Of a stretch of DNA of 64,000 nucleotides, positions 3,548-45,215 are shown piece by piece. The DNA is from Bacteroidota bacterium (GTDB taxonomy: Bacteria; Bacteroidota; Bacteroidia; NORP154), in contig JBDRNO010000094.1 of NCBI GenBank assembly GCA_043811005.1, positions 319 to 64,318 on the forward strand, in the 5' to 3' direction. The notes beneath the pieces are model-generated. The model was not told the origin of the DNA. It saw only the letters and a program-made list of their open reading frames with translations, and ran no database searches. Numbering within the stretch: the stretch's first letter is position 1; each line of letters starts with the position of its first letter. The position numbers were made by a program, and so were the translations under genes.

Positions 3548-3620
3548 GGTGCGGTAGCTCAGTCGGTAGAGCACAGGACTGAAAATCCTGGTGTCGGCAG
3601 TTCGATTCTGCCCCGCACCA
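3548..3620 (+). tRNA. tRNA-Phe (anticodon GAA)
   Basis: 73-nt cloverleaf folded by hand. Acceptor stem GGTGCGG/CCGCACC, D arm GCTC-AGTCGGTA-GAGC, anticodon arm CAGGA-CTGAAAA-TCCTG, T arm GGCAG-TTCGATT-CTGCC, discriminator A. No encoded CCA. Confidence 0.95.
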
Positions 3621-3715
3621 CAATATTCTTTAATAAATTAACAATATTTATACCTGGTAATCATTTTCCCCTGTAAAAATCACCGCCACCCTTAAACCGT
3701 GTGTATTAGGTCAGA

Positions 3716-3739
3716 AGCTCCGAATCGGGGCTTTTTTTA
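3716..3739 (+). terminator. Putative rho-independent terminator downstream of tRNA-Phe
   Basis: Stem agctccg / cggggct (one G-U pair) with a 3-nt loop, followed by a run of 7 T. Confidence 0.45.
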
Positions 3740-3779
3740 TTTCAACGGCTATAACAGATAAAAAATATATTTTTGTATT

Positions 3780-5408
3780 ATGAAACAAAATAAAAAAATT
3801 GTTCTGCTGATTATGGACGGATGGGGGTGCGGTGATAAGACCAGATCTGACGCTATAGCAAATGCCAATACCCCCTTTTTTGACAGCTTAATTAAAAAAT
3901 ATCCAAACACCCGGCTCTTTGCTCATGGTGAATATGTGGGCTTGCCACATGGACAAATGGGCAACTCGGAGGTAGGTCATTTAAACATCGGTGGGGGAAG
4001 AATAGTTTACCAGGATCTGGTAAAAATAAACAAAGCTATAGAAGATAAAAGCATTGATTCCAACCCGGTTTTGATAAAGGCATTCAATTATGCAAAAGAA
4101 AAAGGGAAGAATGTTCATTTCCTGGGGCTTGTGTCTGATGGCGGTGTGCATTCCTCGCAGGAGCATCTTCACAAACTTTGCACTATGTGTAAGGATAATG
4201 GATTAAGCAATGTATATATTCATGCCTTTATGGATGGCAGGGATACCGATCCTAAGAGCGGTTTGGGCTTCATCTCCAGATTAGAAGACCACCTCTCCCC
4301 CGGCCCCTCTCCGAACATCCCCCTTGCACCCTTCAAAGAAGGGGGACTGGAGAGGGGAGACCCGGCGCGCAGGCACTCCCTTCTACCAACTGGCAGAGAG
4401 GGCAAGGGAGGGATGATCGCTTCTATAATTGGCAGGTACTATGCTATGGATAGAGATAAAAGATGGGAAAGAATAAAAGTGGCTTACAACATGCTGGTTA
4501 AAGGTGTTGGAGAAAAAACCACAGATGTTTTAATTGCCATTAAAAAATCATACGATACGGGAATTACCGATGAGTTTATAAAACCAATAGTGAGAGTAGA
4601 CGAATATAATAATCCGGTTGGAAGAATTGAGGAAGGCGATGTGGTCATTTGCTTCAACTTTCGCAACGACAGGTGCAGGGAGATAACGCAAGTATTAACC
4701 CAAATGGATTTCCCAGAGAACAAAATGCAAAAAATGAACTTGCATTACAATACCATGACCAATTATGACATTACTTTTAAAGGTATTAACGTTGTTTTTG
4801 AGAAGGAAGATGTTAAGATGACCATAGGGGAAGTACTGTCTAAAGCCGGTAAAAAACAGATAAGAATTGCCGAAACCGAAAAGTATGCTCATGTTACTTT
4901 TTTCTTTTCAGGTGGCAGGGAAGAACCTTTTAAAGGAGAAAAGCGGATACTTATCCCATCACCAAAAGTCGCAACTTATGATCTGAAACCCGAAATGAGC
5001 GCTTATAAAGTAACTGATGCCATCACAAAAGAGCTGAAAGAAGCAGAAACCGATTTTATCTGCCTGAACTTTGCCAACACTGACATGGTTGGGCATACGG
5101 GCTTTTATGAAGCAGTTGTAAAAGCGGTTGAAACAGTTGATACCTGTATAAAAAAGGTAGTGGAAGAAGGCCTTCAGAATGGTTATTCATTTATTATTAT
5201 TGCCGATCACGGCAATGCAGATTATATGATCAATGATGACGGCTCTGAGAATACAGCGCATAGTAACAATCCCGTTCCATGTATCTTGATTGATGAAGAT
5301 TATAAAGATATTAAAGAGGGTATACTGGCTGATGTAGCTCCCACAATCCTGACATTGATGGGAATGGAGGTTCCCGGGGAGATGACTGGGGAGGTTTTGA
5401 TTAGTTAG
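3780..5408 (+). CDS. gpmI: 2,3-bisphosphoglycerate-independent phosphoglycerate mutase carrying an in-frame inserted element
   Basis: MDGWG..., [33 protein letters not shown] and ADHGNA are hallmark iPGM motifs. At 542 aa it is about 30-35 aa longer than usual because of the block at 4292-4408. Confidence 0.93.
4292..4408 (-). repeat. GC-rich nested palindromic element, in frame inside gpmI
   Basis: Inverted repeats cccctctcc/ggagagggg, ccccctt/aaggggg and ctccctt/aagggag. The reverse complement begins GGTCTCCCCTCTCC, like the copies at 18656 and 53586. Confidence 0.75.
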
Positions 5409-5442
5409 CTGTTCACTATTAAATATACAGTTACTAAAATAA

Positions 5443-6582
5443 TCATTCACTCAGGATGCGATAGAGGTCAATGTTCAGATAGTAATGATGACCGTTGATG
5501 GTCTTTTTTTCCAGCACACCTATCTCACATAGCCGGTTTAAATAGTTCCTTGCAGTATTTTCAGCATATATTTTGGCCTCAGTAAAATGCTTTACCCTGG
5601 TAAATGGCTGGGTAAATAAAAATCGGATCATCAATTCAGGTCTTTTAATATCAGTTTGCATCTCTATTGCTTTCTGAACATCCTCTTTTGCAGTTAATAT
5701 TTCATTTATCTTGTTAAACGTAATATTAGAAGTTATCTCAACAGCCCTTAGCATAAATAATATCCATGTTTTCCAATCACCCCTTTGTATTATTCCCTGA
5801 AGCCCGTAATAATAATCTTCTTTATTTTCAATAATATATTTGCTTAAAAAAAGAATTGGATAATCAAGTAAACCTTTATGGGTTAAGTAGTGAATGTTAA
5901 ATATCCTTCCAGTTCTACCGTTACCATCTCTAAATGGATGTATTGCCTCAAACTGAAAATGCCCGATAACCATTTTGAGCAATGTGTCTGTCTTGTATTT
6001 TTCATTATCATTCAAATAATCCAATAGATTGGTCAATTTATTTTCCAATATGCCCTCACCTCTTGGTGGGGTGTATATTGCTTTCCCTGATTCAAGACCA
6101 CTTCCTCCCCGTTTTATAAAAATCCTCGCATAAGGCGGTCTTATTCCATCACTGGTATGTTTTATTTCCTGACAAATGCTGATCAAATATTCAATGTCAA
6201 ATTCCTCTCTGTTTTTTAAATATTCATACCCTTTCCAAAGCGCTTCCCTGTAATATAAAACTTCTTTTGCCGGTCCTTGCTGTTCTTTAATATTTTTCTG
6301 ACTAAATGCCTGATATAATTCATCATCTGTTGTAAAAATATTTTCTACCTCACTTGATGCTTTAGCTTCCTGTAAACTAATTGTATTGATAAGCATTCCC
6401 TGGTTGGGAATGGCAACGCTTCTGCCATGTAATCTCGCCAGAGCAGCCTTTGCTTCTCCCAATTGCTCCGTTACTTCAACTGTTTTGTATAATGATTCAT
6501 CAATTGGCAGTGGAGGTAATTCATTCCAGGGAACAGCCCTGTTTGAATTTACAGGATATGGATTATGTATCTTACCAGACAT
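5443..6582 (-). CDS. Fic family protein (AMPylation-type Fido domain with C-terminal winged-helix region)
   Basis: HPFRDGNGRTGR matches the Fic motif HxFx(D/E)GNGRxxR. The 379-aa architecture is typical of Fic/DOC proteins. Confidence 0.85.
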   Translation of the reverse strand: MSGKIHNPYPVNSNRAVPWNELPPLPIDESLYKTVEVTEQLGEAKAALARLHGRSVAIPNQGMLINTISLQEAKASSEVENIFTTDDELYQAFSQKNIKEQQGPAKEVLYYREALWKGYEYLKNREEFDIEYLISICQEIKHTSDGIRPPYARIFIKRGGSGLESGKAIYTPPRGEGILENKLTNLLDYLNDNEKYKTDTLLKMVIGHFQFEAIHPFRDGNGRTGRIFNIHYLTHKGLLDYPILFLSKYIIENKEDYYYGLQGIIQRGDWKTWILFMLRAVEITSNITFNKINEILTAKEDVQKAIEMQTDIKRPELMIRFLFTQPFTRVKHFTEAKIYAENTARNYLNRLCEIGVLEKKTINGHHYYLNIDLYRILSE

Positions 6583-6815: not shown

Positions 6816-9656
6816 CTATCTAACTAAAGTTACCCTCCCAATAAAATTGTGGGGCTGGTCTAAATAGTCTTTTATCTTTATTATGTAAACGTACACTTCC
6901 TGTTGTGCAACATCTTTTCCTCCATTACCTTTGCCATCCCAACCCTGATGTTTGTCAGATGTTTCGAAGATCTCATCTCCCCAGCGGTTGTAAATAAACA
7001 TCTCATATTCTTTTATCCCTTTACCTACACCATTAAATATATCATTTAAACCATCCCCGTTAGGAGAAAACGCATTGGGAATCTCAAACAAGAATTCACA
7101 ATCGATCTCAACTATAACATCATCAGAAGCTCTGCGGGGACCACAAGTATCAGTAACAATCACTGTATAAACTGTTGTTTCAACAGGTTTTACAATAACA
7201 TCTCTGAGGGTAATACCATTACTTATCCATGAATATGATAAAGGGCCATATCCTCCTGTTGCTTCTGCCGTAAGAACTACATACTCATTGCAAACAGTTA
7301 CATCTTCCATAGCGGTAACCTCCAAAGGTTCTACATCAGTTATAACAGCAGAAACACTGCTGTCAGGGCACAACTCATAATCGCCACTCTGTTGAATAGT
7401 AATGATAACCGTCTCATCACCCTCAAGGATAGAATCAAATTCGGGAGAAATAACCAATTCTGCAGATGACTCTCCATCGGGAATAATTATACTATCGGAA
7501 ATTGTTAAATAATCAACTCCGTTAATAGCGGTCCCTCCAATTATATAATCAATAGTAAGATCACCTGTTACTTCAGCACGATAAAAAGTAAATACTGCAT
7601 CTTTACATTCCTCAACAGCTTTTGAATCTCCTGCCATGCCAATTCCATTAACAGTGATTGTTACGGAATCTGTAACAACATATCCGCATGTATCAGCAAC
7701 TGTTATAATGTAGGTTGTAGTAGAAAAAGGGGATATGTAAAGCGATTGTTGATTGCTTATAGTACCGTTTCCATCGTCCCACGTGTATGATAAAGTGCCT
7801 GAACCAGCAAGAGCAATTGCCGATAGCATTGCGCTGCCAATTATACAAATGGTAGTATCGTCATTAACTGTTAATGTTAATGGATCAACATTTATGATAA
7901 CGATAGTACCTGAATTAGGCAGAGTAGGACACACAACATCTGTCTCTAATGTAATGATAATAGTTTCATCAGTTTCAGGAATCCCGTCAAGAATGGGGGA
8001 AATAACCAGGTTTACCGAAGACTGGCCGGCTGGGATCACGACACTATCAGGTATGTTTGTGTAGTCACTGCCATTTGTTGCAGTTCCGCTAATTGTATAA
8101 TAAACAGTTAAGGGTAAAACTGTTGACCCTAAACGGGAAATAGTGAATACTGCATCACTGCAACCTTCTACTACCATATTATTTGAAAAAATCATAGATG
8201 GAGGCGGGTCTATAACTGTAACCGTTACCTGGTCGGTAACAATAGAGGTTTCACAGGCATCGGTTACAGTAACAGTATAAGTTGTAGTTGATGATGGACT
8301 AACTGAGACGATACTGCTGTTCCCGGCACCATTATCCCAGGTATAAGTTAAAGGAGCTACCCCTCCTGTAGCATTGGCGTATAATATAGCAGATTCTCCA
8401 GGGCAAAAAATCGTATCGGGATCTGTGCTCGCTGTAACAGATAGAGAATTTGTGTTAATGATCGTAACAGTAACCGAAGATTCAACGTCATCTATGCAGG
8501 TATTGTTTGTGAGGTTGGCAGGAATTGTAATGATAATGGTCTCAATTCCTTCCGGAATACCATCAAGAAATGCTGAAACCAGTAAGTCAACTGACGATTG
8601 ACCGATAGGAATGACAATACTGTCAACAACATAATCATAATCCACTCCATTGGTTGCCGTACCTGTAATAACAAAATAGATGGTCAATGGATCATCAGTA
8701 GAACCCGGTCTGGAAAAAGTGAAAATAAGTGGATCACACCCCTCGGTTACAGTTGCCGTTGGCGCTCCTATTTCTCCCACCTGTACCTGTATGCCCACTG
8801 CACCGAAGCTGGCTGCCTCCAGGAATACACCTGAGTCCCAAACGCCATCACTCACATCGGCAACAGCAAACTTTATATGATATGTTTCACACGGAGTTAA
8901 CGCTTTTTGAGCAGTAAGGACGGTTGTAAATCCATCATATTGAACCGACTGCCCATTCAATGTCTCATTATCTACAAAATAAGTGGAATTATTCAGCCCG
9001 GGATCCCCCTGTCCACCACATCCAAGAGAATCACCTTGTAAACCTATTGTCCCGTTATTAACAGTATTAATAGCAACATAGGTAGATGTGCTTGGAACAA
9101 GGGCAATATTCTCAACTCCGGTAATCCCGGGTCCGCTGATTAAAAAAGCAAATACGTCATTGTAGTCAGAACAAACGTATTCATTATATTCCTCTGATGC
9201 AAAAACATATCTGAAGCTGATTGCATCTGTAACCGTTTCAAAATCAAACTCCAATACTGCCGCATTAAAAGTTGAGTAGGGTGATACAATATTATATAAA
9301 TCCGGATCTCCGGGAGTGCCATTATCAAAACCATCATTACCTGAATCGTTTGGTCCCGGAGCGTCAAAAATACTTCCTGTACATAAAATAACACCGGCAT
9401 CAATACCGATATTAGAAGCTATACCATTAAAATAACCTATCATATTCGCATTTGAATCAATTGGAATTCCTGATGATCCGTTAAATATGACGTTACTTAC
9501 AGTTACACCCGCATCTAATAAAATATTCTCTACAAGAAAAACCGGATCATTATAAGGAGTTGAATTATTAACAACAAGCTGGGCATTGACACTGTTCATG
9601 ACAAGCATCAAGCCAATTAAAAAGGATATATATATTTGTCTTATTGGAAGAAACAT
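6816..9656 (-). CDS. T9SS type B (gliding-motility C-terminal domain) surface protein with Calx-beta-like and SprB-type repeats
   Basis: The C-terminus reads IPNAFSPNGDGLNDIF...YNRWGDEIFE...WDGKG...YVYIIK. Repeats of the form GTATNGVDY...IPIGQSS..L.V....DGIPEG.ETIIITI occur several times. The signal peptide starts at MFLPIRQIYISFLIGLMLVMNSVNAQ, so I place the start at 9654-9656, not 9803. Confidence 0.85.
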   Translation of the reverse strand: MFLPIRQIYISFLIGLMLVMNSVNAQLVVNNSTPYNDPVFLVENILLDAGVTVSNVIFNGSSGIPIDSNANMIGYFNGIASNIGIDAGVILCTGSIFDAPGPNDSGNDGFDNGTPGDPDLYNIVSPYSTFNAAVLEFDFETVTDAISFRYVFASEEYNEYVCSDYNDVFAFLISGPGITGVENIALVPSTSTYVAINTVNNGTIGLQGDSLGCGGQGDPGLNNSTYFVDNETLNGQSVQYDGFTTVLTAQKALTPCETYHIKFAVADVSDGVWDSGVFLEAASFGAVGIQVQVGEIGAPTATVTEGCDPLIFTFSRPGSTDDPLTIYFVITGTATNGVDYDYVVDSIVIPIGQSSVDLLVSAFLDGIPEGIETIIITIPANLTNNTCIDDVESSVTVTIINTNSLSVTASTDPDTIFCPGESAILYANATGGVAPLTYTWDNGAGNSSIVSVSPSSTTTYTVTVTDACETSIVTDQVTVTVIDPPPSMIFSNNMVVEGCSDAVFTISRLGSTVLPLTVYYTISGTATNGSDYTNIPDSVVIPAGQSSVNLVISPILDGIPETDETIIITLETDVVCPTLPNSGTIVIINVDPLTLTVNDDTTICIIGSAMLSAIALAGSGTLSYTWDDGNGTISNQQSLYISPFSTTTYIITVADTCGYVVTDSVTITVNGIGMAGDSKAVEECKDAVFTFYRAEVTGDLTIDYIIGGTAINGVDYLTISDSIIIPDGESSAELVISPEFDSILEGDETVIITIQQSGDYELCPDSSVSAVITDVEPLEVTAMEDVTVCNEYVVLTAEATGGYGPLSYSWISNGITLRDVIVKPVETTVYTVIVTDTCGPRRASDDVIVEIDCEFLFEIPNAFSPNGDGLNDIFNGVGKGIKEYEMFIYNRWGDEIFETSDKHQGWDGKGNGGKDVAQQEVYVYIIKIKDYLDQPHNFIGRVTLVR

Positions 9657-9669
9657 AACTTCAGCAAGC

Positions 9670-9709
9670 CTGCCTGCGCGAAGCCGGAGCTTCGCTTCGG
9701 CATAGGCAG
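9670..9709. repeat. GC-rich hairpin element in the 5' leader of the T9SS gene
   Basis: ctgcct...aggcag encloses a perfect gcgaagc-cgga-gcttcgc hairpin (9678-9695). A related gcttcg-ag-cgaagc core lies inside the element at 18656. Confidence 0.6.
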
Positions 9710-9925
9710 AACAGAACCAAAAAGAATAAAAAATGTTGCATATTACAAATTTACTTATACGAAAACATCTTGTTGAAAGTTTGCAAGATAGCGAATATTT
9801 CAAAAAGCATCAAAATACTATTCCAAAAACATAGCTATGCAAATAAATTAATGAAATACGAAGTATTCTCGAGGGATTTTTCGAGCGCATGACTGTGCAG
9901 TACGAGTAAATTCCGAGTCAATCAA

Positions 9926-11203
9926 TTATACACTAACACCTTGTTTTTCAATCGCAAATTCTTCCCTGATCTTTTCAACATAATCCAGCTTTTCCCATCC
10001 GAAAAGTTCAACCGTGATAATTTCCTTTTTACCGTTATAATATACTTCAACATCTTTAGTTGCGGGTGTTCTGCCCATATGACCGTAAGCGGCTGTTTCG
10101 AAAAAAATAGGGTTTTTTAATCCGAATCTTTGGATTATTGCAGCGGGTCGCATATCAAAAATACTTATTATTCTTCCGGCTATTTGGCTATCAGTTAGCT
10201 TTACCCTGGCTGTTCCATAAGTGTTAACGCACAAGCCAACCGGCTTTGCCACACCAATGGCATAAGCTACCTGTACCTGCACTTCATCGGCAACACCTGC
10301 TGCAACAAGGTTTTTTGCAATATGACGGGCAGCATAAGCGGCTGATCGGTCAACTTTTGAAGCATCTTTACCTGAAAAAGCGCCACCGCCATGAGCGCCT
10401 TTACCTCCGTAAGTATCAACAATGATCTTTCTTCCTGTTAATCCGGTATCCCCGTGAGGACCGCCTATTACGAACTTGCCGGTTGGATTTACATGATAAA
10501 TAATATCATCACCGAATAGTTTCTGTATATGGCCAGGTAATTGCTGTTTAACCCTGGGAATGAGGATCTCAATTACATCTGACTTGATTTTTGCCAGCAT
10601 TTTCTCATCTTCGTCAAATTCATCGTGCTGTGTGGAAACAACGATAGTGTGTACTTTCTCAGGTTGGTTGCTATCATTATATTCAATGGTTACCTGGGAT
10701 TTTGAATCAGGGCGGAGGTAGGTCATCTTGTCATTTTCCCTTCTTATTACTGCTAATTCCATTAACAGCAGATGGGCAAGCTCCAGGGCAAGAGGCATAT
10801 AATTGTCGGTTTCTTTGATTGCGTAACCAAACATCATGCCCTGGTCACCTGCTCCCTGTTCATGATGCAAGCCCTTGCCTTCTTCCACACCCTGGCTTAT
10901 ATTAGGCGATTGTCCATGTATAGAGGAGATCACGCCACACGAATCTGCATCAAACATGTATGCTGATTTCGTGTATCCGATCTTTCTGATCACTTCTCTG
11001 GCAACTGCCTGAACATCAATATATGCCTTGGTCTTAACTTCACCGCATAAAACAGCCAAGCCGGTTGTAACAAGTATTTCACATGCAACTTTTGAATTAG
11101 GGTCGTGTTTTAAAAATTCATCTAATAAAGCATCGGATATCTGGTCTGCTAACTTATCAGGGTGACCTTCAGAGACTGATTCGGAGGTAAATAAGTATGC
11201 CAT
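9926..11203 (-). CDS. metK: S-adenosylmethionine synthetase
   Basis: FTSESVSEGHPDK, GAGDQG, DxKxQVT and GGGAFSGKD are MetK motifs. Confidence 0.95.
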   Translation of the reverse strand: MAYLFTSESVSEGHPDKLADQISDALLDEFLKHDPNSKVACEILVTTGLAVLCGEVKTKAYIDVQAVAREVIRKIGYTKSAYMFDADSCGVISSIHGQSPNISQGVEEGKGLHHEQGAGDQGMMFGYAIKETDNYMPLALELAHLLLMELAVIRRENDKMTYLRPDSKSQVTIEYNDSNQPEKVHTIVVSTQHDEFDEDEKMLAKIKSDVIEILIPRVKQQLPGHIQKLFGDDIIYHVNPTGKFVIGGPHGDTGLTGRKIIVDTYGGKGAHGGGAFSGKDASKVDRSAAYAARHIAKNLVAAGVADEVQVQVAYAIGVAKPVGLCVNTYGTARVKLTDSQIAGRIISIFDMRPAAIIQRFGLKNPIFFETAAYGHMGRTPATKDVEVYYNGKKEIITVELFGWEKLDYVEKIREEFAIEKQGVSV

Positions 11204-19865: not shown

Positions 19866-19996
19866 ATCAGCTACTGGTTTCTGGTTTGATTGTTAATATT
19901 ATAAGGTAGTAATCTCTACAGCAACCAGCAACAGTTTTTTATTATCAATTATATATCTTACCAAATAAAAGGTAATAAGTAATAATTTGAGTTAAT
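19866..19996 (-). mobile_element. Partial copy of the TAATTAAC...TGGTAAGATATATAATTG MITE family
   Basis: The reverse complement aligns with 35472-35612 (AATAATTAACtCAA...TTTGGTAAGATATATAATTG...AACTGTTGCTGGT...AACCAGTAGCTG). The far-end terminal repeat is missing. The terminus overlaps the stop codon at 19992-19994 of the adjacent gene. Confidence 0.6.
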
Positions 19997-21869
19997 TATT
20001 TATAATCCCTGCCCTCTGAGAATAATATTTTGCTTTTTCTACATCGCCCATACTGTTATAAAGCTTGGCTAAATTATTATTAACATTTCTATTGTTTGGA
20101 TTGTATTGCAAAGCTTTTTCATAGTTTTCGATCGCCTGTTCATGTTTTCCTGTATTATGGTAAACAGCCCCGATATTTGCATAAGGGTCTCCATAATCAG
20201 GGTTTGATTGAACTGCTGCCAGAAAGTGTTTTAATGCTATGTCGTAATTTTTTCTATTGAAATAAATTACACCCATATTATTAAGTGCTTGTTGATAACC
20301 GGGATCTGCCTCAATAGCTTTTTGATAAGCAAACAGAGCTTTGTCTTCCTGTTGATTGGCATAATATGTTACTCCCATATTGTACCATGCAGCAGTAAAT
20401 TCAGGATAGATTTCAACGCTCTTTTTAAAGCCCTCAACAGCTTTTGTGAGCAGTGAATTCCTTTTTACAGCATTTCTCTCTCTTTCTCCATCTACCCTGT
20501 ATGCGGATGCCAAGGCAAAATGATTTCTTGCACTGTTTGGACAGGAATTTATGTCAGCCGAAAACAGCGAGAAGTTGTCCTTCCAGTCTTTATTGCGGTC
20601 AATGGTTTTAATAGAAAATAAAGCAGTTATAACAATTATAATTGTGATCAGTTTTGACCGGTTTTTAGAAAATTTTCCAAGAGGGTCGATCTTTAATATT
20701 TTGGCAAGAAGTATAACAATGACAATACAAAATCCAAGTGATGGGGTGAATAAAAAACGTTCACCCAGTGTTGCACCGATCAATATAAAGAGGTTGGATG
20801 TAACAGACAAAGTGATAAGAAAAAATAGTATACCAAAGGCGATGGCGTCTTTTCTTCTGATACCAATGATGCAATAAATCCCCAATGCAATGTAAATTAT
20901 GAGAGAGGCAATTGCCTTGATATCAGTAAAATTTACAATGGGAAACTGGTTGTAAGAATAATCCCAGCTAAGAGGATGGGGGATAAACAACAGGTAAAGG
21001 TATTCACCGAGGATCACAAAATTAGTAGCATATCTTTCTGCTACATTTCCTGCTCCTCTTAACGAGTTATTGATAATATCCAGATCTTCGCCAAATACCA
21101 GGGTATCAAGAACGTTGTTACGTATTATCAAATAGAGAAAAACAACACCAAGGTAAGGAATGGTTAACCTGAAGATGTTCATAAGGGATCTCTCAGTAAA
21201 GAAGTACAAGATCAGGGGGACAACAGCAATTAATGTTATTCCGTTTTCCTTCGATATCAGGCACAAAAAGTAAGACAATGAGCCATAAAGGAGAAATTTT
21301 GCTTTCTGCTTATTATGGTAATCCATTAAAAAATTTAGCGATAGCACACCGAATAAAAAACTTAGAATTTCAGTGCGGCTGGTAATGTTGGCTACAACTT
21401 CGGTATGGATCGGATGAGAGATGAACAATACAGAGATCAACAGTGGTATAAGAATTGTGTAGTTTTTAAATAATTTTGATAATAATAAAAACAATAACAC
21501 ATTTCCTATAGCATAGAACAGCACATTAAAAAAGTGATTTGCTTTAGGATTATTACCGAAGATCTCTTTTTCTATGGCAAAATTTATAAGAGTTAGTGGG
21601 CGGTAGGATTGGTTATTGCGATTGTTAAAGCCATACAGAAACCCATAAGAAACAATATCTCCGATCCCATCAATTCCCTGCTGTACGAAACGGTTTTTTC
21701 CATACACCACATCGTCATCTAACGCATAGCCATGATTTAATGTATTACCATAGAGAATGAAAGTGAACACAAAAAGTGAAAAAAATATAATACGATGCGT
21801 TTTTGTATTGCTCGTTGATGATAAACTTGATCTCTTGTCCTTCTTTCCCCGCTTTTTATTATAAGCCAC
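19992..21869 (-). CDS. Polytopic membrane protein with C-terminal TPR repeats (PMT/TMTC-like glycosyltransferase class)
   Basis: About 11 predicted hydrophobic segments follow YGNTLNHGYALDDD. The C-terminal region contains 4-5 TPR units (AWYNMGVTYY, ALNNMGVIYF, PYANIGAVYH...). Confidence 0.65.
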   Translation of the reverse strand: MAYNKKRGKKDKRSSLSSTSNTKTHRIIFFSLFVFTFILYGNTLNHGYALDDDVVYGKNRFVQQGIDGIGDIVSYGFLYGFNNRNNQSYRPLTLINFAIEKEIFGNNPKANHFFNVLFYAIGNVLLFLLLSKLFKNYTILIPLLISVLFISHPIHTEVVANITSRTEILSFLFGVLSLNFLMDYHNKQKAKFLLYGSLSYFLCLISKENGITLIAVVPLILYFFTERSLMNIFRLTIPYLGVVFLYLIIRNNVLDTLVFGEDLDIINNSLRGAGNVAERYATNFVILGEYLYLLFIPHPLSWDYSYNQFPIVNFTDIKAIASLIIYIALGIYCIIGIRRKDAIAFGILFFLITLSVTSNLFILIGATLGERFLFTPSLGFCIVIVILLAKILKIDPLGKFSKNRSKLITIIIVITALFSIKTIDRNKDWKDNFSLFSADINSCPNSARNHFALASAYRVDGERERNAVKRNSLLTKAVEGFKKSVEIYPEFTAAWYNMGVTYYANQQEDKALFAYQKAIEADPGYQQALNNMGVIYFNRKNYDIALKHFLAAVQSNPDYGDPYANIGAVYHNTGKHEQAIENYEKALQYNPNNRNVNNNLAKLYNSMGDVEKAKYYSQRAGIINN

Positions 21870-28994: not shown

Positions 28995-29082
28995 AGTTAC
29001 TGGTTCCTGGTTGCTGGTAGTGATTACTAAACTATATTATTATGGAAAAAAAACAGAAGCCAGAAACCAGTAGCCAGTAGCT
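28995..29082. repeat. Hairpin element between thiC and the thiE-like gene (CTGGTTGCTGG / CCAGAAACCAGTAGC core)
   Basis: agttactggttcctggttgctggtag (28995-29020) versus the reverse complement of cagaagccagaaaccagtagccagtagct (29054-29082). The core is shared with the elements at 19866 and 35580. Confidence 0.55.
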
Positions 29083-29188
29083 GATTATTAAATGCCACAC
29101 CTAACGGGTGGGCACCAGTTAAGGTGGCAAAAAGATAAATGATAAAATAAAATTTATTATAAACATCCAAATTCCGCTATTATAAAAT

Positions 29189-29847: not shown

Positions 29848-29905
29848 TTAATTAACGTAAGTTGCCACTTATTACTTTTTGTCTGGTAAGATATATAGTT
29901 GTTAT
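29848..29905 (+). repeat. 5' fragment of the TAATTAAC...TGGTAAGATATATA MITE family
   Basis: TTAATTAACGTAAGTTGCCACTTATTACTTTTTGTCTGGTAAGATATATAGTTG aligns with 35472-35524. Confidence 0.6.
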
Positions 29906-35292: not shown

Positions 35293-35471
35293 TGCCGATA
35301 ATTCATAAGCTGGCGTAGCCAAAACCAAAAAGGGTCCTCTTAAATTGGGAAGGGGGATAAATGAAAAACGACCCTCACCCCACGTCCCTTATTTAATTTT
35401 AAAGTATCAGATAAATTTCTTTCCCAAACATAACCAAAATTCAACTGAATGGCCTTGCACCTGTCGAATAA

Positions 35472-35676
35472 TAATTAACGCAAGTTGCTACCTATCACTT
35501 TTCATTTGGTAAGATATATAATTGCAAATAAGAAACTGTTGCTGGTAAAATCCTTATAAAACAAGGGTTGTCGACATAAACCAGCAGCCAGTTACCAGCA
35601 GCCAGTAGCTGTATATAATTTTAATAAGGAGATGACTTCCACATCAGTTTTTATAGGTAGCAACTTAAGTTAATTA
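35472..35676. mobile_element. Complete 205-bp MITE with 24-bp terminal inverted repeats
   Basis: TAATTAACGCAAGTTGCTACCTAT (35472-35495) versus the reverse complement of ATAGGTAGCAACTTAAGTTAATTA (35653-35676), 22/24 match. No ORF. Related copies lie at 19866 and 29848. Confidence 0.7.
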
Positions 35677-36078
35677 TTCAATTATCGTACATTTCTCAGA
35701 TAGTGAAGCTTGTAAATCTTTTCTGCCGTCAAGCCCTTTTATGAGTGCGTGTGAAAATAATGGGTCATCAGGATCGTTACTAAGTGGGTTATGTTCGGTT
35801 GTAAGTCCTAAATTCGTACACTGCTTTGAAGTTACAAAGATGGCCAGATGTGTAACAGCATTAAACAAAAAATTCAAAGATTTTACTAATTCCATTATAT
35901 TTACAGAAAGACCATCTTTATCTTTAACAGGATGGGGTCTGAATGCAAAACGTGCTACTACTTTTTTCCCGTTTGGTAGTGTTTTTATAAATTCCATTGC
36001 ATCATCAGCATAGGGAGGTAGTTTTACTCTCCTAAGTAATTTGTCGTAAGGAAGAATCTTATAGGCAGTAGAATGCAT
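35674..36078 (-). CDS. Hypothetical 134-aa protein, third gene of the HEPN-like operon
   Basis: Its ATG (36076-36078) abuts the stop of the upstream ORF. It has a FAFRPHPVKDKDGLSVN motif and I recognise no family. Confidence 0.6.
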   Translation of the reverse strand: MHSTAYKILPYDKLLRRVKLPPYADDAMEFIKTLPNGKKVVARFAFRPHPVKDKDGLSVNIMELVKSLNFLFNAVTHLAIFVTSKQCTNLGLTTEHNPLSNDPDDPLFSHALIKGLDGRKDLQASLSEKCTIIE

Positions 36079-36570
36079 TTAGGAAAGCAAATCGTTTTTT
36101 AATTCTTGGATATTATTCTTGTCGTAATTATATTCTGAAGCTTTATTTTCTTTACCGCTATATTTTGTCAAAAAAACAGAACCAACAGCTGAAGCCTCAA
36201 TATCTGCTTTAATTATTTCACCATCTATTTCAAACTGTATTCCGCCTTTAAAAGCAGGAAATATGTGAATAGCAATATTTTTTTCAATCAAATTCATTTC
36301 TTCAAATACATTTATTAAAATACGCCCGGTATCAATCGATTTTTGCGAAGTTGCCATTGCATTTTCATTGTCCCAATTTGCAGTGAGTTTGCCAATTTTA
36401 CTTAATTTATAGTACAGCGTAGTGTATTTGTTTATTCCTATCGCATTTAAACTGTAGGGTAAAATAGTAATCACTTTTTTATCAATTGGCATTCTATTAT
36501 TAATAGCTCTTAAAGCTTTCTTATTATCTCCATAGGCAACACTAGGTTCATTTACTGTCCAACTACTCAT
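36079..36570 (-). CDS. Hypothetical 163-aa protein, second gene of the HEPN-like operon
   Basis: Its start overlaps the upstream stop by 4 nt (ATGA at 36567-36570). I recognise no family. Confidence 0.6.
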   Translation of the reverse strand: MSSWTVNEPSVAYGDNKKALRAINNRMPIDKKVITILPYSLNAIGINKYTTLYYKLSKIGKLTANWDNENAMATSQKSIDTGRILINVFEEMNLIEKNIAIHIFPAFKGGIQFEIDGEIIKADIEASAVGSVFLTKYSGKENKASEYNYDKNNIQELKNDLLS

Positions 36571-38477
36571 AGTTCTTTAGATTTAAATTTATACGATGAT
36601 ATTTTAAGAATGATTGAAAGTAAAATTATAACATTGTCAATGCCGTATTCATTTGCATCCATCAAACCATGAGCAACTCTGTGTCGTATATTTCTTCCTG
36701 CTTTGTGTGTTAAAACAAATTTAATAAATTTTCGATGCTCTTCAGAAAAGCCGGTAAAATTTCCTTCTCTGTGTTCTAAATCCCTTAGCAGTTCATCAAT
36801 GTTTTTTTCCTGTTTAATTTGATGAGAAACTTTTGTGCCGTCTGAAAGTATATTTATTTTCTTCCTGTCTTTAAATGTTGGAATTTCAATCACAGAACAC
36901 ATAAATCTGAGTAGGTGTTCTATCTTGGTTGTTAAGGAATCAGTCGCACATATGAAGTTTGGATTCTTTTCTTGTTTCCATTCTCCTAATTCATCAAAGA
37001 ATGATTTTATGCCTGGTGTAATCACTTCTAAAGGACAGATTTCAAAAGGATGTCCATTATACAAAATGGTGTATGTTTTTGCTAACCAACTTTCTTTTAA
37101 AAAATTTATTATTTCTTCATAACTAATTTTTCCAGTTTTAAAAGCCTCGATAAAAAAATAAACAAGATTTTGTGTTCCTATTTGAAAGTTAAATCCATAC
37201 GCCTGCCAAAAATTAAACTGTTTTTTTTCTTCATCTTCAGTAAATACATCAACCGTATTTCCATATTTATCAATGATACTAGTCGGGAATAAACGAGCAA
37301 TTGCACTCGCTTTATAAAATTCCTCAGCCATTTTATTTATATGCTCCAAAGATGAAAACATTGGTGCTAAACAAAGTATTTCAACGAGTTCCCTGCTATT
37401 TTTTTCTTCAATTTCTTTTTTAATTAATGCTGTAATTCTATTATTTTCTTCATCAGGTAGATTTTGTCTTATCTCACCCAACCTAAACATCCTCCTGACC
37501 TCATCATATTTTTTGGAGAGTTTTTCAACTTTTGCTTTATTCTTTAATTTCTTATAAATCTCTAATGCACTTTCAACGAAAGTGACTGCTGCTAGATTAC
37601 CTGTTTCAATGGCGGGTATTACCATTGCTTCAAATTGTTTTGCTTTGAAGTCAAGCCAATTATACTTTTTATCTCCTATTGCATCTGCTAATCTTTTTGA
37701 TGTGTCACAAATGTAGATAGCACCCCAATTATATGACTTGGAAATTTCTTTTGCAGCACGATAATTTTGGTCCAGATATTTTTTTAATGGAGTTTTGTAT
37801 TTAAGAAAAGTGCTTTTATATTTAATTGCAAAATCTGTAAGGTCAATGATTGAACGCAAAGTACTTTTATGTGAAATATCCCAATTGTTGTGTACATCAG
37901 ATGTAAAGAGAATTAACTCTTGAAATAAATTCTGTATTTCTTTATCCCTCTTTCTATTATTGGCAATATGAAAAGCATTTGTTAATACTGAGTTGAAATA
38001 AAGAATATAATGCTCTTTATCATTTTTTGGCACTGATTTTTTATAATATCTATGCGATAAATCCAAAAGATCTTTAAGAAGCTTTGCGACATCTTTGTTA
38101 TTTTTTAGGTTATTGGAATAATAGAGCACCAATCCATATTCTGTTCTTGCAAATAAATTCTTGCAAATGTCAAAGCGTTTTCGGATATGTTTGAAATCGC
38201 CATTTTCCCATTCTTCAATATTTGGCCATTCAAAGGGGATTTCCGAACCATCCTCCAATTCTTTTGTTCCTGCAATTTTATGCGAAAGCCCTTTTTCAGG
38301 AGATTTGCTAAAAGCAAATACCTGTCGTTCCATTTCGGAGTTTCGTAATAATCCTTTTTCCCGTGCTGTTTCCAACTTGCCATTGACTTCCTGAAATGCT
38401 TTATTAATCAGATCATTCTGTTTAATGTCCCAGTTGCTTTCATCAATCCGTTTATGTAGTTGTTCTAAAAAATTCAC
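36567..38477 (-). CDS. Large helical protein with a C-terminal HEPN-like (DUF4209/Abi_2-type) R-x4-H motif
   Basis: 636 aa with a GTG start. The C-terminal ...KAGRNIRHRVAHGLMD... has R598-HRVA-H603, encoded at 36669-36686. No P-loop or other catalytic motif was seen. Confidence 0.6.
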   Translation of the reverse strand: MNFLEQLHKRIDESNWDIKQNDLINKAFQEVNGKLETAREKGLLRNSEMERQVFAFSKSPEKGLSHKIAGTKELEDGSEIPFEWPNIEEWENGDFKHIRKRFDICKNLFARTEYGLVLYYSNNLKNNKDVAKLLKDLLDLSHRYYKKSVPKNDKEHYILYFNSVLTNAFHIANNRKRDKEIQNLFQELILFTSDVHNNWDISHKSTLRSIIDLTDFAIKYKSTFLKYKTPLKKYLDQNYRAAKEISKSYNWGAIYICDTSKRLADAIGDKKYNWLDFKAKQFEAMVIPAIETGNLAAVTFVESALEIYKKLKNKAKVEKLSKKYDEVRRMFRLGEIRQNLPDEENNRITALIKKEIEEKNSRELVEILCLAPMFSSLEHINKMAEEFYKASAIARLFPTSIIDKYGNTVDVFTEDEEKKQFNFWQAYGFNFQIGTQNLVYFFIEAFKTGKISYEEIINFLKESWLAKTYTILYNGHPFEICPLEVITPGIKSFFDELGEWKQEKNPNFICATDSLTTKIEHLLRFMCSVIEIPTFKDRKKINILSDGTKVSHQIKQEKNIDELLRDLEHREGNFTGFSEEHRKFIKFVLTHKAGRNIRHRVAHGLMDANEYGIDNVIILLSIILKISSYKFKSKEL

Positions 38478-38523: not shown

Positions 38524-38531
38524 CAAATATA
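38524..38531 (-). promoter_or_regulatory. -7 promoter box (TATATTTG on the minus strand) for the three-gene operon
   Basis: The plus strand reads caaatata, which fits TAnnTTTG on the minus strand. It lies about 47 nt upstream of the GTG at 38477. Confidence 0.4.
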
Positions 38532-40931: not shown

Positions 40932-43900
40932 CTATTGACAAATCACTTTCCTGGTAATCACAGCGCTATCAGTTACAACTTGCACGTAGTACATGCCCTT
41001 GTGGTATTTGCCCAGGTCAATCTGCTTATGGAGCATACTTGTATGTTCGGAGCAAATTAGCTGTCCCTGCATGTTGAATATCCTGATCGTTATATCTTGT
41101 CCCGAACCTGCCGGGGACAAAGCAGGGGTGAGATTGAGGATCAAATTAAACAACCCCCTGTTGGGATTGGGGTAAACTATTACTTGATCCCCTTCTGTGA
41201 TGTGGAGTTGATCAATGCCTGTAATAGAAGTATTGAAACATAATATGTAGTCATCAAGTGAAATACTGTTGATTATGGTTGCGGTATTATAGCCCGCTCC
41301 TCCTGAACCCAGGGTACCTCCGTTGGTAACATTCCAAGTGGGATTACTTACAATTGTGTCGCCTGCTGAATGGTTGCATCCGCTTATCCCGTTGTCATCG
41401 GTTCTGATCAAATACATCTCCATATCCCCTTCTTCAACCCCTCCTCCAAAACTGCTGGAAAATCCTGCGACAATGAATCCACCATCAGATGTTTGCTGAA
41501 CCGAATAACCGCTTTCGGAAAATTCTCCGCCAAAGGTTTTAGTCCATAACAGATCTCCATTGGCATCGGCACGGATCAAATAAACATCCTCTCCATTGGC
41601 TGCGGTACTGCTTGTTACCCCTGTGAAGATATATCCACTATCTGAAGTTTGCTGAACTGAATAACCGTAATCACCACCGCTTTCCCCATAAGTTTTTGAC
41701 CAGGAAATGTCACCGGCAGCATTGGTTCGGATCAAATAAACATCATAGCTGCCTGCGCCAAAGCTGTTAGTATATCCGGCTATAATATATCCTCCATCAG
41801 TAGTCTGCCGGACCGACCATCCTTCATCTTCATCTGTCCCACCAATGGTTTTAGTCCACTCCGTATCTCCATTTACATCGGTCTTGATCAAATAAACATC
41901 AGCATCTCCCGCACCAAAGCTGTATGTATAACCTGTTATGATATATCCTTCGTCAGATGTTTGCTGAATCGAATAACCGCAATCGAAACCTGTTCCACCG
42001 ATGGTTTTCGTCCACAACAAGCCACCGTTATCATCTGTATGTACCCAATAAAAATCACTCAATCCTGCTCCAAAGCTGTTGGTTCCACCTGTGAAAGTGT
42101 ACCCGCCATCATTGGATTGCAAAACGGAAAACCCTCTATCGTCTCCGGTTCCACCATAGGTTTTTGTCCACAATATATCTCCATCGGCATCCGTGAGGAT
42201 CAAATATATATCATAATCCCCGGCTCCAAAGCTATTGGTGTAGCCAGCAATTATATAACCGCCATCGTTAGTTTGCTGAACGGAATATCCACGATCGTCA
42301 CCGGAGCCGCCATAAACCTTTGCCCATAAGATATTAGCATTGTCATCAGTACGTATCAAACAAACATCAGCATCTCCTGCACCAAAACTTTTGGTATATC
42401 CTGCAATAATATAACCGCCATCTGTGGTTTGCTGAAGAGACCTGCTAAAACCATCATTTGTTCCCCCAAAGGTTTTTTGGAAAACCCAGACATTATTATC
42501 ACTAACTGCAACACCGGCATTATTAACACACCCGTTATTATCAGTTACTACTATGTTATAAACTCCCGCAGCTAAGCCGGTTGCCAAATCGGTTGTCTGT
42601 AAAGCAGGGTCATCCCATTGATATGAATATGGCTGATTGCCTCCGTATGCAGTTACCCCGGCAGAACCACTGTTCCCTGAAATATCAGGAGAAGCAATTG
42701 TTGCTAAGATCAAAGTTAAGGGTTCATTAATAATTAATGTACTTCCGGTTTGAACGCATAATTTAGCATCCCTTACCTTTACAGTATAGCTGCTTGCGCT
42801 CAAGCCGGTAAAGATGCCGGTAGTATTGGGGTAAGTAATTCCGTTATTAATCGAGTAGCTTTTAGTCCCGGTACCTCCGCTTGCGGTTAATGTAATTTTT
42901 CCGTCAGTCAGTCCATTGCAAGTGATATCTGTTGATGCTTCCGAATTAATAGTTACTTGTGTTGGTTCGGTAATATTTATACTTTGGGATTTTGAACAGC
43001 CGTTTGCATCGGTAACAATTACTCCATATACTCCAGCTGCAAGACTGTATATTGATGATGATGGTACACCAGATACTGTTACCCCGGTTGACCAGTAAAA
43101 AGTATAAGGAGTAGCTCCACCATTTACAGCTGCTGTAATATATCCATCATTACCACCATTGCAATCCGCGTTTTTACTTGTAATAGTTATATTCATAGGT
43201 GGTGGTTCAATAATGGTTACATTATCCATTCCTTCACATCCGTTACCATCAGTAACGTTCACCGTATATACTCCTTCACAAAGAGTATTTGCGGTTGAAT
43301 TGGTTTGAGTAAACGAGTCGTTCCACGAATAAGTGTAAGGAGGAGTACCTTGAATGGAGGTTGCAGTGGCGCTTCCATCACATATCCCACCACAGACGGG
43401 ATTTGTACTACTTGTGATGTTGGTATAAAATGATATAGAGATAATAGCCGAATCAAAACATCCGTTAGCATCATTAACAATAACCTGAACAGTACCGGAA
43501 TGAAGGTTGACAGCAGTTGAATCGGTCTGTGAATCCGGGTCATTCCATAGATATGAATAGGGAGGTGTTCCACCAGCAGGGGTAACAGTTGCAAAAGCGG
43601 AAGAGTCTGCATTGCACAAGACGGGTACGGAATCGGTGGTGCTTAAAGATAAAACGGGTGGTTGTGTTAAAGTTACAGTTGCGGAATTAAAACATCCAAT
43701 AGCATCATAAACAATAACCTGATAAGTACCCGGAGGTAAGCCGGTAGCAATTGACCCGGTTTGTAAAGAGGAATCGTCCCATGAATATGTAAAAGGAGAA
43801 GTTCCGCCAGAGGGGGTGACCGTAGCTGTACCGGAAGAACCTCCATAACACAGCACGTTGGTTGAATCCGTGATACTGACGGAAAAATTAAGCTTATCAA

Positions 43901-45215
43901 CGTCTGTGGCTGTATTATTAACAATAGTTGTTGTATTCATAACTGTAGCTCCTGATCCTATATTTGTTCCTGTTGAATTAACCAGGGTAAGGGGAAGAAT
44001 TCCAATAGTGCCGGCAGCGGTTTGATAACATCCTCCGTCATATCCAACAGAATCGGTTTTGATAACAAAGATATCATAGCCCCAGGAACCATAACTCTGT
44101 GTTTCACCTAAAATAATAAAGCCACCGTCAGCAGTTTGCTGTAAAGAATAACCAATATCGTCATCCGGTCCGCCAAAGGTTCTTGTCCATACAGTATCGG
44201 CATAAGCATCGGTTTTGATCAAATAAACATCAATACCCCCTGCTCCAAAACTACTTGTATTCCCTGCGAAAATACATCCGCCATCAGCAACATGCTGGAC
44301 TGAGAATCCATAATCTATACTATCTCCACCAAATACTTTTGAACAAAGAAGATTTCCAATGGAATCGGTTTTGATTAGATAGATATCATCAATCCCTGAT
44401 CCAAAGCTATTTGTGGAACCACTAATAATAAACTCCCCATTATCAGGTTGCCTGACTGAATAGCCGAGATCATCACCTGTTCCTCCAAAGGTTTTTGCCC
44501 ATAGAGTATCACCAATAGAATCGGTTCTGATCAAATATACATCAACCGCACCGGCTCCAAAACTGTTTGTCTGACCTGCGATAATATACCCCCCATCAGC
44601 AGTTTGCTGAATGGAGCTGCCAATATCACTGTTTATTCCACCAAAGGTTTTTGTCCATAAAGTATCACCAACAGAATCGGTTTTGATTAAATAAACATCA
44701 TCGCTTCCGGCTCCGAAACTGTTGGTATATCCAATGATAATATACCCGCCATCAAAGGTTTGATGAACTGCATTGCTATAATCTAGACTATCTCCACCAC
44801 AGGTTTTTGTCCATAGAGTATCACCAATAGAATCGGTTTTGATCAAATAAATATCATAGTTTCCGGCTCCGAAACTGTTCGTATATCCGCTGACAATGAA
44901 TCCATTATCAGAGGTTAGCCCGACTGACTTACCAAAATCGTCACCAGACCCTCCATAAGCTTTTGTCCATACAGTATCACCGTTAGCATCGGTCTTGATC
45001 AAAAAAACATCATTGCCACCTGCTCCAAAGCTGTTCGTATATCCTGTAAAAATATAACCGCCATCAGCAGTTTGCTGGATTGATCTGCCGTGATCGTCAG
45101 ATGTTCCGCCAATGGTTTCTTGAAAATCCTGTCCTGCACATGAGGAAATCATTTGCGTGATGGGATTTAATGTAATTAAGCAAGCGACTGAAATTGTAAT
45201 TAATGAGGATTTCAT
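40932..45215 (-). CDS. Giant T9SS type A cargo protein with two arrays of ~50-aa propeller-like repeats flanking SprB/HYR-type Ig repeats
   Basis: There are more than 14 repeats of the form GG.G.D.G.SV.QT.DGGYII.GYTNSFGAG..D.YLIKTD..GD..W.KT. The central repeats read C.G...G.ATV...GGT.PY.Y.W.D. The C-terminal Por secretion tail reads VIVYPNPNRGLF...IFNMQGQL...GMYYVQV. Confidence 0.85.
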   Translation of the reverse strand: MKSSLITISVACLITLNPITQMISSCAGQDFQETIGGTSDDHGRSIQQTADGGYIFTGYTNSFGAGGNDVFLIKTDANGDTVWTKAYGGSGDDFGKSVGLTSDNGFIVSGYTNSFGAGNYDIYLIKTDSIGDTLWTKTCGGDSLDYSNAVHQTFDGGYIIIGYTNSFGAGSDDVYLIKTDSVGDTLWTKTFGGINSDIGSSIQQTADGGYIIAGQTNSFGAGAVDVYLIRTDSIGDTLWAKTFGGTGDDLGYSVRQPDNGEFIISGSTNSFGSGIDDIYLIKTDSIGNLLCSKVFGGDSIDYGFSVQHVADGGCIFAGNTSSFGAGGIDVYLIKTDAYADTVWTRTFGGPDDDIGYSLQQTADGGFIILGETQSYGSWGYDIFVIKTDSVGYDGGCYQTAAGTIGILPLTLVNSTGTNIGSGATVMNTTTIVNNTATDVDKLNFSVSITDSTNVLCYGGSSGTATVTPSGGTSPFTYSWDDSSLQTGSIATGLPPGTYQVIVYDAIGCFNSATVTLTQPPVLSLSTTDSVPVLCNADSSAFATVTPAGGTPPYSYLWNDPDSQTDSTAVNLHSGTVQVIVNDANGCFDSAIISISFYTNITSSTNPVCGGICDGSATATSIQGTPPYTYSWNDSFTQTNSTANTLCEGVYTVNVTDGNGCEGMDNVTIIEPPPMNITITSKNADCNGGNDGYITAAVNGGATPYTFYWSTGVTVSGVPSSSIYSLAAGVYGVIVTDANGCSKSQSINITEPTQVTINSEASTDITCNGLTDGKITLTASGGTGTKSYSINNGITYPNTTGIFTGLSASSYTVKVRDAKLCVQTGSTLIINEPLTLILATIASPDISGNSGSAGVTAYGGNQPYSYQWDDPALQTTDLATGLAAGVYNIVVTDNNGCVNNAGVAVSDNNVWVFQKTFGGTNDGFSRSLQQTTDGGYIIAGYTKSFGAGDADVCLIRTDDNANILWAKVYGGSGDDRGYSVQQTNDGGYIIAGYTNSFGAGDYDIYLILTDADGDILWTKTYGGTGDDRGFSVLQSNDGGYTFTGGTNSFGAGLSDFYWVHTDDNGGLLWTKTIGGTGFDCGYSIQQTSDEGYIITGYTYSFGAGDADVYLIKTDVNGDTEWTKTIGGTDEDEGWSVRQTTDGGYIIAGYTNSFGAGSYDVYLIRTNAAGDISWSKTYGESGGDYGYSVQQTSDSGYIFTGVTSSTAANGEDVYLIRADANGDLLWTKTFGGEFSESGYSVQQTSDGGFIVAGFSSSFGGGVEEGDMEMYLIRTDDNGISGCNHSAGDTIVSNPTWNVTNGGTLGSGGAGYNTATIINSISLDDYILCFNTSITGIDQLHITEGDQVIVYPNPNRGLFNLILNLTPALSPAGSGQDITIRIFNMQGQLICSEHTSMLHKQIDLGKYHKGMYYVQVVTDSAVITRKVICQ

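Follow-up and report, generated by a model that had tools for sequence, protein, structure and literature searches.

A candidate mobile three-gene conflict module of Bacteroidota with a predicted TPR-HEPN protein and an exchangeable toxin-antitoxin-like cassette

The C6orf70 (ERMARD) family of the HEPN superfamily, which corresponds to DUF4209, has been noted for TPR fusions and for occurrence in restriction-modification (R-M) related operons (Anantharaman et al. 2013, PMC3710099). HEPN domains contain a four-helix up-down core, in which an insert separates helices 2 and 3 and the motif lies where helix 3 ends, and active members are recognized by an R-x4-6-H motif, a polar residue (N/D/H) right after the arginine, and an E-x3-[KR] motif in helix 2 (PMC3710099). 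Another described group, the toxin-antitoxin-chaperone (TAC) systems, combines an exchangeable toxin-antitoxin (TA) "warhead" with a third protein that recognizes a short segment of the antitoxin and senses phage proteins (10.1101/2024.02.24.581848; PMC11618068). Here we describe a block of three minus-strand genes, named A, B and C, in a 64,000-nt stretch of a Bacteroidota metagenome-assembled genome (MAG) from NCBI. This whole stretch is called the window, and all coordinates of the trio are given on it.

We are fairly confident that the trio is a mobile conflict module containing a HEPN protein predicted to be catalytically competent. With a probability of about 0.5, we read it as a tripartite module, in which C (or a PIN-domain protein in sister loci) would be the toxin, B the antitoxin, and A a TPR-HEPN sensor and possible second RNase that engages the N-terminus of B. 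The three genes are as follows.

36567..38477, minus strand: gene A, 636 aa, GTG start (ABII90_04545; NCBI "hypothetical protein"); TPR-like/HEPN (DUF4209) protein
36079..36570, minus strand: gene B, 163 aa (ABII90_04540; NCBI "hypothetical protein"); modular second-gene product, proposed antitoxin/adaptor
35674..36078, minus strand: gene C, 134 aa (ABII90_04535; NCBI "hypothetical protein"); basic protein of a small new family, proposed toxin/effector

The three open reading frames (ORFs) are found in the ORF and translation listing where an earlier, sequence-only reading of this DNA had placed them. Direct inspection shows that the stop codon of A overlaps the start codon of B by 4 nt (ATGA) and that the TAA of B directly abuts the ATG of C, with a spacing of 0 nt. 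Translational coupling thus joins B and C to A as well as to one another, and the three products may have a fixed stoichiometry, as the sequence-only reading suggested. Support for the GTG start of A comes from its N-terminus, which aligns with the nearly invariant M1, N2 and L4 of homologs.

The HEPN-type domain and TPR-like scaffold of A

Protein A contains two main regions, and the C-terminal one carries the putative active site.

36597..37034, minus strand: C-terminal HEPN-type domain of A, residues ~482-627, of which Pfam DUF4209 covers 554-625
36669..36686, minus strand: R598-H-R-V-A-H603, the R-x4-H catalytic motif of HEPN, with the polar H599 following R598
36906..36920, minus strand: E520-x3-R524 in predicted helix 2 (509-529), corresponding to E-x3-[KR], the second active-site motif of HEPN
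37308..38204, minus strand: residues ~92-390 of A, modelled as stacked helices; helical-repeat scaffold (TPR/alpha-solenoid-like)

The segment GRNIRHRVAHG, from which the sequence-only reading had suspected a HEPN RNase, is present at the C-terminus of A, with R598 at nt 36684-36686 and H603 at nt 36669-36671. The DUF4209 identity that had been linked to this motif is confirmed by Pfam PF13910 (24.9 bits against a gathering cut-off of 22.3, E 2.1e-5), and all 66 of 66 aligned A homologs match DUF4209 (best E 3.5e-15). We note that PF13910 is named DUF4209 in one Pfam copy and "EMARD_N" in precomputed tables, the newer name being taken from eukaryotic ERMARD (C6orf70). The proposed likeness to Abi_2 proteins was not borne out: at E <= 1, A matches only DUF4209 and a sub-threshold "Goodbye" family, and no Abi family is among the top 25 of the 49 families listed for the 66 homologs.

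Conservation of R598 and H603 had been named as a check on the HEPN assignment, and neither residue varies in any of three alignments, which contain 28, 66 and 37 sequences. E520 and R524 are likewise invariant in the 66 homologs and in the 37-sequence C-terminal alignment, which includes 19-24% identical proteins from Longimicrobium and Roseateles MAGs. The family pattern around the catalytic motif is R[NH][RKQ][VI]AHGL[ML]D, and the polar residue after the conserved arginine is H599 in the A protein of the window and N or H (R[NH]) across the family. Helices are predicted in the C-terminus at 482-501, 509-529, 579-589, 597-602 and 613-627, with a beta-hairpin insert at 535-557, and this secondary structure fits the published description of HEPN, including the insert between helices 2 and 3. 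At the level of sequence and predicted topology, A has all four published features of an active HEPN domain, and its C-terminus is identified as a DUF4209/ERMARD-type HEPN domain with a complete and invariant RNase motif set, fused to a TPR-like scaffold.

The AlphaFold2 model of A has a mean predicted local distance difference test (pLDDT) score of 90.4. It agrees only in part with the suggestion that A is all-helical: the model contains a TPR-like solenoid in the middle and several beta hairpins. The top matches of the full-length model in a Foldseek search of the PDB are LGN, BamD, alpha-SNAP and VPS35 (probability up to 1.0, E of 4e-3 or above). Sequence-profile searches of the PDB with full-length A and with its C-terminal domain returned no solved relatives.

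An exchangeable cassette downstream of A

Co-conservation of the trio, which had been proposed as a test of the module, is found in other genomes. The A-B-C order recurs across Bacteroidota, including plasmids, with B directly after A in ~60 loci. B and C appeared very rare in a word-indexed protein search, but hidden Markov model searches of the ORFs around A homologs showed otherwise. Among genome loci with enough downstream sequence, ~24 contain A+B+C, ~19 contain A followed by a ~90-100-aa protein (named B') and a PIN partner (PF01850 or PF13470), and 11 contain A alone; one plasmid also carries a solo A. A metagenome scan seeded with B yielded 38 loci with full-length B. Counting only loci with sufficient flank, A is upstream in 28/34, C is downstream in 32/35, and PIN is found in 2. 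The gene spacing is tight in all loci (-19 to +14 nt), and the hosts are almost all Bacteroidota, including Hymenobacter, Flavisolibacter, Lentimicrobium, Chitinophagaceae, Flavobacterium and Bacteroidales.

In a tree of A proteins, the partner type is a mosaic, with B+C widespread and PIN-type pairs in several separate clades. The A protein of the window, together with that of locus L001, nests among PIN-type sisters (L004, L005 and L006; handles with L denote loci of our collection). Profile comparison with hhalign found no homology between B'/PIN (C') and B/C except a 16-column N-terminal match. In sister loci, among them those of the closest relatives of A, the two downstream genes have repeatedly been swapped for a pair encoding an unrelated small protein and a PIN-domain (VapC-like) one. 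The sequence-only reading had taken B and C as partners of a HEPN effector; in view of the replacement by PIN pairs and the occasional loci without A, they are better described as a separable, swappable antitoxin-toxin-like cassette.

Two regions of B behave differently in these comparisons.

36532..36561, minus strand: N-terminal segment of B, W4-T-V-N-E-P-S-V-A-Y13, common to otherwise unrelated PIN-associated second-gene proteins
36094..36408, minus strand: B-core domain, residues ~55-159, with conserved W66-D67, A71, P105, G109-G110, Q112 and E125 (55 sequences)

The N-terminal ~55 residues vary among the 55 B sequences. A "VNEPxxxY" segment within this region is shared by the B protein of the window, L001, P0123, L062 and most B' proteins, and it tracks the A clade and not the gene-2 family. 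In L062, a B' N-terminus (14/17 identical residues) is joined to a B body. The B core of L102/L103 continues into a tail resembling the conserved one of B' (E 6.5e-4), and PIN is the product of the third gene there. Gene-2 proteins are chimeric, as their N-terminal segment goes with the A clade and their C-terminal part with the gene-3 type, which is the pattern expected of an adaptor.

B and C are two new small protein families, as judged from database and profile searches. They had been reported to match no nameable family, and indeed have no Pfam, NCBIfam or PDB relatives, either alone or as families: searches of Pfam, NCBIfam and PHROGs gave nothing above noise, and sequence-profile searches of the PDB gave nothing useful. 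The median isoelectric point (pI) is 4.7 for the B family and 8.5 for the C family. The B core matches the C-terminal ~100 positions of the PADLOC profile PDC-M32A (E 1.8e-7 for the B protein of the window), which is also matched by 5/5 other, diverse B proteins. The core further occurs as standalone short proteins without A or C on 20 metagenome and 16 viral contigs, and phrog_30544 (372 aa) is matched by larger viral proteins whose C-terminal part is a B core. The viral B-core proteins (IMG/VR L130-L145; for example, L131:5010-5309 and L133:4167-5390) are 77-110 aa or larger and lie amid arrays of small same-strand genes. The standalone proteins on phage contigs could be antitoxin mimics. 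No C-like genes were found beside the viral B-core proteins, a C-family profile found no relatives on viral contigs, and tblastn of the B and C proteins of the window gave no match in 50,697 phage records.

The C family is tiny, with 13 cluster representatives in 1.84 billion, essentially all of them stand-alone proteins of 100-150 aa. The FAFRPHPVKDKDGLSVN motif pointed out earlier in the 134-aa protein is present in its translation. Among 49 distinct sequences, R16-R17 and F46 are conserved in 49/49, S58 (within D-G-L-S-V) in 48/49 and H110-A111 in 47/49, while H96 is not robustly conserved. The model of C has a pLDDT of 72 and a predicted template-modelling (pTM) score of 0.68. The only PDB matches with a TM score of ~0.4 have the ADP-ribosyltransferase (ART) fold, namely AvrPphF (1s21) and Tpt1 (6e3a), with cholera toxin lower, all at E > 0.7. 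Tpt1 recurs in the viral library BFVD, also at E > 0.7. Relative to the ART triad (R-S-E or H-Y-E), C has R16-R17 on a strand, S58 in D-G-L-S-V, and H110 where a glutamate is expected. These features are a weak hint that C may be ART-like, which we treat as a lead only. A weak link of C to PDC-M32B appears in 1/5 C-family proteins (E 0.014), and the C protein of the window has no match to this profile.

The cassette also occurs in loci without A. B+C as an autonomous adjacent pair is seen in a few cases (L105, L116 and L084/L086), and C was never found without B in the loci examined. In L105 the pair follows a leucine-rich repeat protein. In L116 (1-1591) it directly follows an ImmA/IrrE-type metallopeptidase (PF06114) and a DUF4411 protein, which are themselves another two-gene module typical of mobile elements. 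In L084/L086, a T4 Rnl2-type RNA ligase (PF09414 + PF18043) takes the place of A upstream of B and a truncated C. The 100% identity to L083 is confined to 820 bp of these contigs (4976-5795; B and ~85% of C), with unrelated sequence on either side. Either another element (phage?) has recently captured the B-C segment or the assembly is chimeric; these loci are used only cautiously, since the two cases are indistinguishable. If genuine, the position of an RNA-repair enzyme beside a putative RNA-targeting toxin module would be noteworthy.

Decayed loci keep B, while C is frameshifted in L148, truncated in L084/L086 and absent in L062. On the Hymenobacter volaticus plasmid unnamed5 (L148:6995-9903), A and C are both split by frameshifts and B is intact. 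At L062:6034-6925, only the C-terminal 128 aa of A are left beside an intact B. In L083, a JGI metagenome contig, a stretch with A and B is repeated at 2917-5396 and 8016-10495 with 100% identity and a period of 5,099 bp; the trio may be tandemly duplicated there, or a small circular element may have been assembled as a concatemer.

Mobility and genomic setting

The horizontal mobility suggested by the sequence-only reading is supported by the comparison with L001, which has 84.7% nucleotide identity over 35672-38470 in a differing context, and by the plasmid copies. The identity ends within 2 nt of the stop codon of C, and the downstream gene of L001 has no counterpart in the window. The block is AT-rich as described: its GC content is 0.316, compared with 0.374 for the window, and lies in the lowest 1.3% of all 2.8-kb windows, with the minimum of the window falling within the block. 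Two features border the trio.

38524..38531, minus strand: TAnnTTTG box (Bacteroidota -7-type, promoter-like), 46 nt upstream of the GTG of A
35470..35678, no strand assigned: element of 209 bp resembling a miniature inverted-repeat transposable element (MITE), with 26-nt terminal inverted repeats (92% complementarity), directly 3' of C

The box reads TAtaTTTG, as expected from the earlier description. It is weak evidence by itself because the pattern occurs 91 times in the window, and only its position is suggestive. The MITE said to cap the 3' end of the trio is likewise present. We call it MITE-like because partial copies are found elsewhere in the window, at 19924-20000 (77 bp, 86%) and 29849-29901 (53 bp, 85%); another is at 29050-29083. 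Its right arm overlaps the stop codon of C, and it contains an internal direct repeat, ACCAGCAGCCAGT, in two copies. Rfam and tRNA scans found no Rfam family or tRNA gene in or near the block.

Motif inspection of the translations agrees that the neighbourhood is a housekeeping one, with ThiH-like radical SAM, ThiF/MoeB-like, PcrB-like and TyrS proteins in the flanks. Elsewhere, the chromosomal contexts are different in every genome and mostly metabolic. The expected proximity to known defence genes holds for Hymenobacter plasmids but not usually for chromosomes, where the surroundings are mostly housekeeping genes. On these plasmids, the trio adjoins HipBA (L146), adjoins an MmeI R-M enzyme and a ParA/Rep region (L147), or lies between BREX and WYL/DUF262 genes (L149), and a solo A is flanked by BREX and an ATPase/RNase H pair (L150). 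Unrelated to the trio, a 1427-aa minus-strand ORF at 40932-45215 of the window contains repeated "GYTNSFGAG...D.YLIKTD" units and a probable signal peptide, and is likely a large secreted repeat protein.

Interpretation and comparison with described systems

In the tripartite reading, the block would be a mobile three-gene conflict module for anti-phage defence and/or addiction, composed of a large sensor/RNase, a modular antitoxin-like adaptor and a small toxin. C would arrest growth as the toxin; it would belong to a new family in which R-R / S / H form a constellation that looks catalytic, and would have the same function as the PIN RNase found in its place elsewhere. As in type II TA pairs, B would neutralize C. 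The helical-repeat scaffold of A may dock the N-terminal segment of B and/or a phage-derived ligand. Upon infection or loss of the element, B would be titrated or degraded and C released, and the HEPN RNase of A may be activated too, leading to cell shutdown (abortive infection). A bolder version of this reading, which we consider doubtful, is an undescribed tripartite immunity of Bacteroidota, in which A would be an invader sensor and back-up RNase that holds a chimeric antitoxin by a short docking segment at the N-terminus of the latter, the C-terminal part of the antitoxin would neutralize an exchangeable toxin (PIN or C), and phages would use standalone B-core proteins as counter-defence decoys that imitate the antitoxin. 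In that version, C would be an enzyme of a new or highly derived fold, possibly ART-like.

A number of observations weigh against the tripartite reading. A does not need B and C, because it stands alone in the 11 genome loci and because PADLOC lists the A-like PDC-S39 as a single-gene candidate. HEPN structures are absent from the Foldseek matches of full-length A, which are TPR/solenoid only; Foldseek could not confirm the HEPN fold because TPR matches dominate. The model of C (pLDDT 72) has no significant fold match in Foldseek, the best E being 0.77 in the PDB and 0.048 in the viral library, the latter to an unnamed phage protein. No DNA-binding Pfam domain is found in B or B', and the B protein of the window has a pI of 7.8, i.e., it is not acidic. 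The hhalign match between the N-termini is statistically weak for this protein (columns 8-23 only, P 0.018), and simple physical linkage, with recombination breakpoints inside gene 2, could explain why gene-2 N-termini track the A clade. Chromosomal trios usually sit among housekeeping genes and not in defence islands, and adjacency to defence genes is known from five plasmids only. The toxicity of C, its neutralization by B and the contact between A and B are all steps that we infer. The only apparent A-B fusion, a 790-aa ORF in L080 (448-2820), was rejected: the junction has an A8 homopolymer, a shift of 1 nt restores a "...KND*" stop, and the fusion is probably a sequencing artefact.

The main rival is that two independent systems are stacked on one transcript, sharing only promoter and mobility: A would be a sensor-HEPN RNase, and B+C (or B'+PIN) an unrelated inserted module with no interplay. 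We consider this a real possibility, though a minority one. The solo A genes of 11 genome loci and one plasmid are consistent with it, as are the B+C pairs without A, the exchangeability of the cassette, and the separation by PADLOC of A-like (PDC-S39) from B/C-like (PDC-M32) candidates. Validated single-protein defences with a sensor and a HEPN domain also exist (DS-11, PMC13092281; HEC-08, 10.1101/2024.01.29.577857). However, unrelated TA-like pairs occur repeatedly at the same position, with overlapping or abutting codons, at A identities down to ~30%, and A is present in 28/34 B-bearing loci. The gene-2 N-terminal segment tracks the A clade across unrelated gene-2 families, and B' is without a DNA-binding domain, which type II antitoxins that act autonomously normally require. 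These points argue against stacked, independent systems.

An arrangement like that of HEPN-MNT or RnlA-RnlB, in which A would be the toxin, B the antitoxin dedicated to it and C an accessory factor or regulator, we regard as improbable. HEPN RNases are often toxins with a small adjacent antitoxin (PMC3710099), B comes directly after A with a start that overlaps the stop codon of A, and decayed loci retain B. Yet A is viable alone in many genomes, B+C occur without A, and neither B nor C has a nucleotidyltransferase/MNT or RnlB-like signal. Moreover, the second gene can encode an unrelated protein of ~90 aa with a conserved C-terminal tail that accompanies PIN, and therefore gene-2 specificity tracks gene 3 and not A. 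A non-conflict housekeeping role, such as RNA processing or quality control by an analogue of eukaryotic ERMARD that has two cofactors, seems very improbable: the trio does lie among metabolic and housekeeping genes in the window and in several chromosomes, and the eukaryotic family members are conserved cellular proteins (PMC3710099), but the distribution is patchy, the genomic context is different in every genome, the GC content is anomalous, plasmid-borne trios lie beside BREX, R-M and HipBA, the cofactor genes are replaced by PIN toxin pairs, and pseudogenized copies exist.

If the tripartite reading is true, the trio would give a first functional handle on bacterial DUF4209/ERMARD-type HEPN proteins, a family that extends to a conserved human protein and has so far been characterized by sequence analysis only. 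It would also be a second, unrelated case of an exchangeable TA warhead with a third-protein sensor, known so far from SecB-type TAC, and would suggest that this design is a general solution in bacterial immunity. The analysis defines two new small families, the B core (shared with phage proteins and PDC-M32A) and the rare putative toxin C with its R-R/S/H constellation, and brings two PADLOC candidates, PDC-S39 and PDC-M32, together as a single testable system. Informative domain swaps for the tripartite model are suggested by the natural chimeras L062 and L102.

The sequence-only reading held that the trio is not a named system. This stands in so far as the literature searched was found to describe neither the trio nor the exchange of the cassette nor the families of B and C, but candidates listed by PADLOC do match A (PDC-S39) and B (PDC-M32A). 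Both PDC-S39 profiles (595-615 positions) match A (E 7.1e-15 and 3.3e-10), although only residues 291-413 and 577-612 of A align, and PDC-S39 is a single-gene candidate, whereas A is coupled to two downstream genes in the window and in ~60 other loci. No experimental test of PDC-S39 was found in the literature searched, where the name appears only in PADLOC output lists. The candidate PDC-M32 consists of two genes, M32A (~375 aa) and M32B (~123 aa), and the M32B profile is similar in size to C. The C-terminal ~100 of the 375 positions of M32A align in 6/6 B proteins tested; unlike M32A, B is without the ~260-residue N-terminal part.

Among TA systems, VapBC (PIN) resembles B+C in its small adjacent or overlapping genes, with the presumed antitoxin first, and in the pI pattern of an acidic B family and a basic C family; sister loci hold a small protein and PIN at this very place. 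B and C differ from VapBC in having no sequence relation to VapB or VapC, in the lack of a DNA-binding domain in B and B', and in the large upstream gene that dominates the pair. HEPN-MNT pairs likewise contain a HEPN protein with complete catalytic motifs beside small partner genes in mobile contexts. The trio differs from them in that no nucleotidyltransferase family matches B, C or 39 family members, and in that A is large, TPR-fused and viable alone.

Among described families, A itself is closest to the C6orf70/ERMARD (PF13910) proteins, which share the R-x4-H motif with its polar residue, E-x3-R in helix 2, the insert between helices 2 and 3, and the TPR-like fusion. That family is reported near R-M genes, and here the trio lies beside MmeI on the plasmid L147. 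Its RNase role is a computational prediction only, and the downstream cassette and its swapping are not in PMC3710099. The TAC systems HigBAC and CmdTAC share a tripartite logic with the trio, in which a short gene-2 segment tracks A and the rest tracks the toxin. In contrast to TAC, A is a TPR-HEPN protein with no SecB signal, the tracking segment is N-terminal and not a C-terminal chaperone addiction domain (ChAD), and A is the first gene; the resemblance would be one of logic only, with an A-B interaction that is presumed. The components of the trio belong to known kinds, namely a HEPN RNase, a TA-like pair and PADLOC candidates.

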